From positions 310,001 to 374,000 of the forward strand of contig CP120455.1 in the NCBI GenBank assembly GCA_034226945.1: a stretch of DNA of 64,000 bases, in the 5' to 3' direction. Position 1 is the first letter of the stretch. Each line of letters opens with the position of its first letter. This DNA comes from Picochlorum sp. SENEW3 (lineage: Eukaryota). Position numbers and translations under genes: made by a program. Below, one piece after another: positions 3,409-5,832 of the stretch. Under the pieces are notes generated by a model that did not search any database, was not told the origin of the DNA, and was given only the letters and a program-made list of their open reading frames with translations.

Positions 3409-4872
3409 ATGTTGAATTCTCTCTCATCTGGAAAAGGGTTATTTTCTCTCAATCCTGGTCAGAATGTAGGTCCATTTGTGATCGATATGTCTCTTAATGA
3501 TGCTGTACAAGCTATTGAATCGCGAGAAGATGGAGACGAGGCGTTTGGCTTGGTAAAGGTCTCTTCAAGTGGAGAGGGAACGCCAGTGTTGCTGGATTTG
3601 GTTGACATTGGCATTCTCTTGTGGTTTGATGCCTTCTCACAGCGATTGAGATGCATTGAGATTGCTGATGCGTCTCGTATACCGGGTAGACTGGTCTGTC
3701 GGGGAGTTGTATTTGAAAAGAATACCAGGCCAGTGACCTATGGGACCTTGTACAATGCGTATGGGTGTACCACGGATCAGGAGATTGATGAAAAGAAGCG
3801 TGTGAAGCCATTGGTATATCCTGGATTATTAGGGCTGTTTAAAATTGATGACGAATGCTCATCTGTGTCGGAATACGAGGCAACGTCCATTTTTGTGTTG
3901 CCACAGGATGCTGCTCCTGTGTCTTCTCGGGAGCATGTGTTTGAGTCGTCTATACTGGGACGACAAAGTGAACAAGAGCATAGTGCTATGTGGATTGTTG
4001 TGTTGGGAAAGGGTATGTGGAGGGAGGATGGCTCGTCAAATGGTAGAGTGGCGGGTTGCTGCATACGATTTGGTGTTGATACACCCCAGGACATTCTTCA
4101 CATTCTTGGGCTTCCAGAGGATGTTCACAAGAAGAGAATGAAAACAGTGTCGAATGGAGATGAATACGTTTTCAATTATTATAAACAGGGGCTTGATGTT
4201 GTATTTGATGGGCAGCGACACGTCGTCAAGACGTGCGTGTTGCACACAAATACCACCAGGCATGCAGAGTTTGGTCGGTATGATCCTGCACTGTTTTCTC
4301 TTGTCCCATCAGACATGTACACACTCGAATCCGATGGATGCTCGAATAGTGGATCTTCAGAAGATGGGGTAGAGTCGAGTAAATTGAACCAGGCGATTCA
4401 GGCAATCAAGTCGAATCACATGAGAGAACTGCTTGCAGATGCTGAGTACACAGAGGCAAGCTCTGGGAGTCAGTCAGCATGGGTCAGTGCGGCAAGTTCT
4501 CCAGGGATGAGTACCCCCAACTTTGGTCCAATTGCCCAACAACATGAGGCAAAAGCAAAACAGCACAAGCGAAAAACAAATAAGAAAAAGACAAAGCAGC
4601 AACAGCAACAACAGCAAGAAGAAAAGAATGTTACCTTTGGTGTGTCAAATTTCTACACAATTGATAGGTTTGAAGACATGTTTGGAGACTGTCTCCAAGG
4701 CAAGCCATCAATTATATATTGGAACCTTGACACATCGCGAACATCAACAAAAACGGCGACGGCCTTGGCAAAATCCTTCCTGTACAAATTCCCAGACCAA
4801 GGCCTGGATGTAGAATACGCCTCAGATGGCACGCTTGCAGCAGTGTATCTCTCAGCAACAGCACACTCGTAA
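3409..4872 (+). CDS. UPF0183 / PHAF1 (C16orf70)-like protein
   Basis: PGQNVGPFVIDMSLNDA; LWFDAFSQRLRCIEI; TPQDILHILGLP; YVFNYYKQGLDVVFDG..HVVKTCVLHTN...HAEFGRY. Confidence 0.85.
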   Translation: MLNSLSSGKGLFSLNPGQNVGPFVIDMSLNDAVQAIESREDGDEAFGLVKVSSSGEGTPVLLDLVDIGILLWFDAFSQRLRCIEIADASRIPGRLVCRGVVFEKNTRPVTYGTLYNAYGCTTDQEIDEKKRVKPLVYPGLLGLFKIDDECSSVSEYEATSIFVLPQDAAPVSSREHVFESSILGRQSEQEHSAMWIVVLGKGMWREDGSSNGRVAGCCIRFGVDTPQDILHILGLPEDVHKKRMKTVSNGDEYVFNYYKQGLDVVFDGQRHVVKTCVLHTNTTRHAEFGRYDPALFSLVPSDMYTLESDGCSNSGSSEDGVESSKLNQAIQAIKSNHMRELLADAEYTEASSGSQSAWVSAASSPGMSTPNFGPIAQQHEAKAKQHKRKTNKKKTKQQQQQQQEEKNVTFGVSNFYTIDRFEDMFGDCLQGKPSIIYWNLDTSRTSTKTATALAKSFLYKFPDQGLDVEYASDGTLAAVYLSATAHS

Positions 4873-4909
4873 TGGGTGTATTACAGACTATTATTATAAT
4901 TGTGAACAA

Positions 4910-4978
4910 AAGATTGCTTTCATGCCTCAGTTGTGTAAAATCATACACATGCTTGATGATGGCAGTCATAAAATCTCA
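4910..4978 (-). promoter_or_regulatory. SECIS element (type II) in the SELT 3' UTR
   Basis: Minus strand reads GAGAUU-UU-AUGAC-UGCCAUCA-UC-AA-GCA-UGUGUA-UGAUUU-UACACA-AC-UGAGGCA-UGAA-AGC-AAUCUU: helix I, AUGA/GA core, helix II, unpaired AA and apical mini-stem. UGUAA follows at 4885-4881. Confidence 0.85.
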
Positions 4979-4990
4979 GTCACATGTCCA

Positions 4991-5536
4991 TTACTGGGAT
5001 TTGCCCATAATTTGCTCAATCCCCCTCAAAATCTCCTCCATATTACTAGGCATGCGTCCTGTCGCAAGTTTACTGAACACCAACGAATTGTCAAAATAAA
5101 TTTCAAACGCGCCCGTCGAGGTCAGGGCATTATTCACTGTATTACCAATGAACCATGCCCCCATTAGTATCATCATCTTCTTCTCCTTCACCTCTGGAGG
5201 AATGGTGATGTTCAGAGCATTACCCAACTGATCCATCAGCAACGCCGCACCCATCACTCCCATCTGAATCATCGTCACAATTTTAGACAGGAATGCATTC
5301 GTCGGAGTCGGGGGGTAATTCTCCATGACAAAGTCTATATTTTCAGGTCCTAGGTGCTGCCTCAGATACTGTTGAACCTGCATCGCAGCACCTCTGTAGG
5401 ATCAACTTTTACAGAATTGTAACAAAATCCGTGATTTATCGAGTCCAGAGGAGGAATCTGTCGCCGCGTTTACAGAAGGCATCACGCTTGCATGAAATAA
5501 AAGCAAAACAGATAGGATATAATAGATACACTTCAT
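4991..5536 (-). CDS. SELT: Selenoprotein T (Rdx family), Sec at codon 45
   Basis: ATG 5536 gives MKCIYYILSVLLLFHASVMPSVNA (signal peptide)...LLQFCKS-TGA(5404-5402)-SYRGAAMQVQQYL, in frame with the SelT body (ENYPP, LTSTGAFEIYFD, FSKLATGRMP). 181 aa. Confidence 0.93.
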
Positions 5537-5832
5537 CGGTGTACTTTTGAATAATAACTTTTTATTAAATTATCATTCTGACCTAGAGACATGGGCATGA
5601 TTCCATAACTGACGTAAACCCGAACCTGGGATGTTTTGAATTCCGATCGAGCGAATTAAAAAACAGCAAACAGTAGAAATCCTGACTTGGCACATTTCGT
5701 GGCACCTTGTCCTTGTTTGATTTCCTAGCTGTCCAAGATTGGCCATACCATTTCAAAATTAAACTCATTCTTCAATTTTACAACCATATTGGACCTCGTC
5801 GTCTCATTCATGCGACGAGGCGAGTCACAGAC

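Follow-up and report, generated by a model that had tools for sequence, protein, structure and literature searches.

A probable selenocysteine-containing selenoprotein T in Picochlorum sp. SENEW3 and candidate stripped-down SECIS elements in its lineage

The gene at positions 4991 to 5536 (minus strand) of the 64,000-nucleotide stretch analyzed here (contig CP120455.1 of Picochlorum sp. SENEW3, positions 310,001 to 374,000; hereafter, the window) almost certainly encodes a genuine selenocysteine (Sec)-containing selenoprotein T (SelT), whose UGA codon 45 would be decoded as Sec by means of a SECIS element. The gene itself is ordinary for algae and its family was known in Picochlorum before, since Sec-containing SelT is common in algae (over half of the 36 algal genomes covered by PMC7539508 have it) and a Picochlorum genome study lists SELENOT (PMC11092101). 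The new lead is the apparent, and unusual, stripping down of the SECIS-like hairpins that accompany selenoprotein genes in this lineage.

RESULTS

The SelT gene and its product

The SelT frame, on the minus strand, runs from an ATG at 5536-5534 to a TAA at 4993-4991 and comprises 181 residues; its sole internal stop is the TGA of codon 45, in the context LQFCKS-U-SYRG. An earlier, sequence-only reading of this DNA had extended a 130-aa open reading frame (ORF) upstream through this single TGA to the ATG, without an intron, and its coordinates and frame proved exact; the 130-aa ORF, which begins at 5383 (Met52), is the portion of the SelT frame 3′ of the TGA. The read-through frame is not a product of chance, because it exceeds the cut-offs of both TIGR02174, the SelT/SelW/SelH model (58.6 bits versus 34.2; E = 5.5e-16; residues 39 to 167), and Pfam Rdx (PF10262; 51.3 bits versus 22.6; E = 1.4e-13; residues 37 to 166), and both matches start upstream of the TGA, placing the protein in the SELENOT/Rdx family. 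SelT is single copy in the genome (G000), where protein and profile searches return it as the sole Pfam Rdx match, and it lies between two housekeeping genes unrelated to it: a PHAF1-family gene that converges on it and ends at 4872, and a gene for thiamin pyrophosphokinase. No relative turned up when viral contigs were scanned.

An AlphaFold model built from a 27-row alignment (pLDDT, 88.9; pTM, 0.71) sets C42-x-x-U45 between a strand (residues 35 to 41) and a helix (residues 48 to 62). When this model was searched with Foldseek, the top 10 targets were SelW-related proteins or structural-genomics targets of Rdx size (probability, 1.00), with TM scores by target of up to 0.85 and rmsd of 1.5 to 2.8 Å in the top rows; no match had an E value of ≤0.001, the best being 1.2e-3. 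The predicted fold is of the SelW-like thioredoxin type, in agreement with membership in the family. Residues 1 to 20 are hydrophobic (KD 11-mer values of up to 2.5), and in the three closest homologous loci (L038 to L040), an in-frame Met and a hydrophobic stretch likewise lie upstream of the TGA. We infer that the N terminus is a signal peptide or anchor, and cleavage after V-N-A would be a guess. The helical insertion within the fold (Table 1) is likely to be membrane associated. Such an N-terminal hydrophobic segment and hydrophobic helical insertion are typical of SelT, and both are absent in SelW and SelH.

Table 1. Features of the SelT gene and of the 3′ elements of Sec genes; positions without a locus name are those of the window
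Feature	Position	Strand	Basis or remark
SelT (SELENOT) coding sequence, 181 aa, intronless, single in-frame TGA	4991..5536	-	Frame, family matches, contigs
C42-K-S-U45 redox motif; TGA at 5404-5402	5402..5413	-	Translation, homologue alignment, model
Putative N-terminal signal peptide or anchor, residues 1-24	5465..5536	-	Hydropathy; model helix 2-16; L038-L040
Helical, moderately hydrophobic insertion in the Rdx/thioredoxin-like fold, residues 78-139	5120..5305	-	Hydropathy, model, Foldseek
Type II SECIS candidate, starts 22 nt past stop	4901..4989	-	Canonical-shape scan, folding, variants, sister loci
SECIS helix I	4989-4970 with 4918-4901	-	-9.1 kcal/mol
SECIS core	ATGAC 4969-4965 with TGAA 4922-4919	-	L038-L040 retain the core and the basal pairs
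SECIS helix II, 7 bp, interrupted, over 10 nt		-	Predicted fold
SECIS apical AA	4954-4953	-	11 nt above core
SECIS apical mini-stem, 6 bp	4949-4932	-	Predicted fold
TGTAA just 3′ of the SECIS	4881..4885	-	Sole such site on the minus strand between 4990 and 4800
3′ ATGAC-core elements of the Sec-GPX genes	L017:2050-2078, L019:2129-2153	+	16- to 20-nt hairpins above core
3′ ATGAC cores of SelK and SelU	L113, L108		Without canonical SECIS shape

Sec machinery and other Sec genes

All of the components for which a search had been advised (tRNA-Sec, PSTK, SPS, eEFSec, and SBP2), as well as SecS, are encoded in the genome. tRNA-Sec, with anticodon TCA, is present in two identical copies on different contigs (G000:C11:921403-921489 and G000:C12:25864-25950), which may lie in a duplicated segment, since their flanks agree at 1586 of 3087 positions. 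SecS (E = 7e-120) and the SelD/SPS domain (E = 2e-79, within a 747-aa frame) pass their cut-offs. PSTK and eEFSec both score below the NCBIfam cut-offs; the best PDB match of the former is PSTK (E = 4e-20), and the best solved relative of the latter, the product of an intron-containing gene, is human eEFSec (E = 2e-35, versus 1e-12 for EF-Tu). Two divergent SBP2-like L7Ae genes (L031, G000:C6:158221-161487; L033, G000:C4:280788-284039) encode proteins whose best match is human SBP2 (E = 1e-18 and 2e-11). The top TIGR00475 match was rejected as eEFSec, being mitochondrial EF-Tu (eEFSec corresponds to the sixth and eighth rows), and a second PSTK-like match (L009) is, by eye, probably KTI12.

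At the SPS locus (L010; G000:C4:401952-405881, minus strand), the SelD/SPS domain ends the 747-aa frame and follows a region that, by eye, is pyridine-nucleotide-oxidoreductase-like. Fusions of SelD/SPS to a pyridine-nucleotide oxidoreductase occur in other algae.

Four further genes have a TGA at the Sec position of their family (two of the four GPX genes, SelU, and SelK), so that five Sec genes were found in all. SelF, SelO, MDP, and an FeS oxidoreductase are Cys forms in this genome, no Sec codon occurs in the matched part of the 3 MsrA-like loci or of the 30 of 34 thioredoxin loci examined, and none of the 4 Pyr_redox_dim and 10 Pyr_redox_2 matches proved to be a thioredoxin reductase of the Sec type.

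A SECIS candidate behind SelT

The element downstream of SelT (Table 1), of which the sequence-only reading made no mention, has the AUGA/GA core, closed by helix I, of a canonical type II SECIS. An AA lies 11 nt above the core, at a place where none of the three sister loci (L038 to L040) has it; helix II is predicted to have 7 pairs, short of the 11 to 16 bp given for canonical elements in PMC2647825. A canonical-shape scanner, whose thresholds were chosen in the knowledge of this candidate, returned 4 hits in the 128 kb of the two strands of the window, one of them the candidate itself. Run on 42 of the 49 TGA-bearing homologous loci, the same scanner hit 21 (about 4 of them doubtful), and it hit none of three Cys loci. 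Sequencing runs X3 and X7, apparently representing one haplotype, differ from the window at 4933, where a G-C pair of the mini-stem becomes G-U, and at 4956 and 4931, where U-A becomes A-U if the two positions are paired, a pairing assigned by hand that the minimum-energy fold leaves open. Free folding of the 111 nt from 4990 to 4880 was no better than that of shuffled sequences (z = +0.42). Rfam reported no SECIS between 4600 and 5600 of the window, a silence that is uninformative because it reported none in 14 loci either, among them 8 related ones that carry textbook elements.

Between the stop of SelT and that of the PHAF1-family gene, which converges on it, there are only 118 nt (4873-4990), so that the SECIS takes up most of the shared gap and the two 3′ untranslated regions (UTRs) may overlap. 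The TGTAA just beyond the element is, we assume, a possible chlorophyte polyadenylation signal.

The meaning of the in-frame TGA

Assembled contigs (not raw reads) were compared from 4 of 19 listed runs, drawn from four studies. In all four runs, positions 5402-5404 are covered, always as TGA, and no joint was reported; a single contig of run X7 spans 4926-5549 ungapped, and one of run X13, from an oligo-dT RNA library that possibly includes DNA, spans 4960-5458, also ungapped and with the TGA unchanged. Contig ends at 5549 and 5562 are no proof of the start, since contigs give neither transcript ends nor levels. Coding variants in the other runs are synonymous in six of eight cases (two of three upstream of the TGA). 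That an intron removes the TGA, or that the TGA is an assembly error for TGC or TGT, might be argued from the introns in other genes of the genome, such as eEFSec, and from the comparison being one of contigs, which drop rare forms. The unspliced TGA in every run nevertheless leaves this explanation exceedingly improbable and already largely refuted, as does an enumeration of the 56 possible frame-keeping GT/GC-AG introns across the TGA, none of which retains the motif or leaves CxxC. None of the three outcomes that the sequence-only reading had named as fatal to it (a TGA spliced out of the RNA, a TGC or TGT in the reads, or a genome without Sec machinery) was encountered, within what assembled contigs can show.

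Homologues bear on the two other ways of reading the codon. A metagenome scan yielded 69 homologous loci (near-duplicates among them being L054 to L057 and L058 and L059), of which 52 aligned over residues 42 to 47 at an E value of ≤1e-10 and 17 did not cover this region. Codon 45 is TGA in 47 of the 52, TGT in 4, and CTG in 1, bearing out the expectation that Sec or Cys falls at this codon in orthologues; Cys at position 42 accompanies TGA in 46 loci and TGT in 3. Among protein homologues (155 of 157 aligned, 2 of over 300 aa being dropped), 99 start after position 45, and at position 45, the 42 that carry Cys at position 42 include 24 with C and 13 with W, the W being probably a TGA translated with another code table. 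The nearest protein cluster has 10 members, every one of them 130 to 135 aa long, among them one named Picochlorum sp. BPE23/P. renovo (P0160; 99% identity to the window SelT over 127 columns), and the claim that standard annotation truncates the gene therefore holds. These short forms in public gene sets, and the in-frame ATG 7 codons past the TGA, would suit a TGA that is a true stop, leaving as the working gene the 130-aa ORF from Met52, or else a pseudogene. We consider this very unlikely: the same TGA, with a conserved Cys three codons before it, recurs in the 46 loci of distant eukaryotes, the product from Met52 would, according to the model, be without strand 1 and the entire redox motif, and a second SelT copy is absent from the genome. 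There is an equally slight chance that readthrough of UGA 45 inserts Cys or Trp rather than Sec, or that UGA is reassigned genome-wide, as might be supposed from a SECIS that is weak by canonical measures and from the 13 database homologues with W. Against this, in-frame TGA occurs in the family matches of the genome at Sec positions only (GPX, 2 of 4; thioredoxin, 0 of 34; MsrA, 0 of 3; Pyr_redox_2, 0 of 10), TGA terminates ordinary genes such as GPXb, and the genome has a tRNA-Sec and an eEFSec dedicated to Sec. A general reassignment of UGA does not fit, since the other families checked are Cys forms or have no Sec codon. The reading that we prefer is decoding of UGA 45 as Sec.

Candidate stripped-down SECIS elements in the lineage

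L038 to L040 are the closest loci and group with the window SelT (97/83). Each has TATGAC-TG, 37 to 55 nt past the stop, paired with CA-CGA, and a strong helix I; position 3 of helix II across the four elements is C-G, G-C, T-A, and, in one, an A.A mismatch. Above the core, the stems of the three sister loci measure 32, 87, and 37 nt, and in all three the canonical position of the AA is occupied by other bases. In the genome itself, neither of the Sec-GPX genes, nor SelU or SelK, gave a hit when a looser canonical scan was run over 1 kb.

We compared eight Sec genes, namely, all five found in the genome and the three sister-clade SelT loci, with 91 control 3′ regions. ATGAC occurs within 150 nt of the stop in 8 of 8 Sec genes and 18 of 91 controls (Fisher P = 9e-6; for the genome alone, 5 of 5, P = 6e-4). 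The longer TATGAC[GT]G is present in seven of the eight and in none of the 91 controls, but its definition was post hoc, and SelK, its one prospective case, is without it. The apical AA is missing in seven of the eight elements; in these seven, the stems range from 16 to 87 nt with 2 to 9 basal pairs. The best closures give a 20-nt stem for GPXa (only -1.7 kcal/mol), 16 nt for GPXb, and 56 nt for SelK; for SelU, no closure was found and no 3′ core could be assigned. When a core, a minimum of 5 basal pairs, and a helix I are all required, five of the eight pass, compared with 1 of 91 controls for an ATGAC core and 17 of 91 for any RTGA core. In SelK, whose Sec lies near the C terminus, the core is 140 nt out, and the TGA stop of GPXb lies about 50 nt before its core, spacings that are compatible with the minimum of 51 to 111 nt given in PMC3753652.

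A genome-wide search with the relaxed core yielded chance levels (31 versus 23 and 17 versus 45 for the reversed pattern) and no new selenoprotein. Among 47 relaxed sites ranked, the three known elements came 3rd, 12th, and 13th, and the noncoding sites L175 and L179, which have no same-strand gene upstream, score equally well or better; the loose ATGAC motif also occurs by chance.

Just past the stops of SelU and SelK (L108 and L113), a long pyrimidine run precedes a purine run that is complementary to it. In SelK, this segment could be a GT-AG intron beside the Sec codon.

We are fairly sure that the ATGAC cores are real SECIS cores. Whether the elements work without the apical AA and with such stem lengths is a good deal more doubtful, and we would put it at somewhat under an even chance. 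With the same reserve, we suggest that in the Picochlorum-like lineage, the SECIS may have been relaxed to a kink-turn core (TATGAC with YGA), helix I, and a few basal pairs, the apical adenosines, regarded in mammals as essential, having been dropped and the apex varying from a 5-bp hairpin (GPX genes, 16 to 20 nt) to 87 nt. The two divergent SBP2-like proteins (L031 and L033) may be what reads such relaxed elements.

DISCUSSION

Judged from sequence, UGA 45 would be recoded as Sec in the cell as follows. The intronless SelT mRNA would be translated from the ATG at 5536; the SECIS hairpin, 432 nt downstream of UGA 45, would be bound by SBP2, whereupon eEFSec would deliver Sec-tRNA(UCA); and with Sec inserted, translation would continue to the UAA at 4993. 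The hydrophobic N terminus would take SelT into the endoplasmic reticulum (ER), the helical insertion would hold it at the membrane, and C42-x-x-U45, at the turn between strand 1 and helix 1, would form a thiol/selenol oxidoreductase site. Mammalian SELENOT, whose CVSU motif lies in a thioredoxin fold, inserts into the ER membrane and associates with OST (PMC9344019); by analogy, the algal protein may share its location, activity, and partners, and its role would probably lie in ER protein folding or N-glycosylation. The window gene has in common with the SELENOT/Rdx family a thioredoxin-like fold with CxxU at its first strand/helix turn, a hydrophobic N terminus, a helical hydrophobic insertion, an STGAFE..FSKL motif, and, in the 3′ UTR, a candidate type II SECIS. 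It differs in reading CKSU where the mammalian protein has CVSU (PMC9344019), in being compact and intronless, and in having its SECIS 22 nt past the stop with a helix II of about 7 pairs.

SelT has been described in Ostreococcus (PMC2375036), and land plants are without Sec machinery (PMC6627142). For Picochlorum, a genome study reported tRNA-Sec(TCA), two GPX proteins, and, as possible selenoproteins, SELENOK, SELENOT, and SELENOU by blastP (PMC11092101), and the same five families hold Sec codons in our analysis. That study listed 11 selenoproteins from blastP of the predicted proteome, whereas five Sec genes were found here; of its additional families that we checked, three (SelO, MDP, and the FeS oxidoreductase) are of the Cys type and MsrA has no TGA in the matched part. 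The main text of that study contains no occurrence of the term SECIS. In the literature searched, most subscription journals lying outside its coverage, the terms SECIS and Picochlorum never occur in one paper, and no account of elements of this relaxed kind was found.

The SECIS of SelT is of type II in all species examined, and within the core only UGA/GA is invariable (PMC2647825); the apical AAR motif was described in 2009 as essential, with no known partner (PMC2761289). The window element shares with these canonical elements the AUGA...GA core, helix I below it, and a G-C pair at position 2 of helix II (PMC2647825 and PMC2761289), and it shares a long apical mini-stem with the SECIS of Ostreococcus, whose core is GUGA (PMC2375036). 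In contrast, the elements of the four other Sec genes of the genome and of L038 to L040 are without an apical AA at 11 to 13 nt, and instead of a helix II of 11 to 16 bp, these seven have 16 to 87 nt above the core and 2 to 9 basal pairs. A parallel can be drawn with the SECIS of Lokiarchaeota, which likewise combine a eukaryote-like AUGA/GA core with a shortened stem and a position near the stop codon; the lokiSECIS, however, has a fixed 9-bp stem and keeps its apical adenines (PMC4989117), whereas the algal elements are variable in length and mostly lack them.

For SelT, the consequence is a corrected gene model, since the 130-aa fragment in public sets lacks the active site, and selenium use, as reported before, is confirmed for a group of microalgae used in biotechnology. 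If the relaxed elements are what they appear to be, they would constitute a minimal natural eukaryotic SECIS that canonical searches are likely to miss. Should five selenoprotein mRNAs indeed operate mostly without AAR and with very short or very long stems, they would offer a compact natural system in which to probe that motif and the spacing set by helix II. A relaxed SECIS of this kind could also explain why some predicted selenoproteins in algal surveys were reported without a SECIS (PMC6627142).
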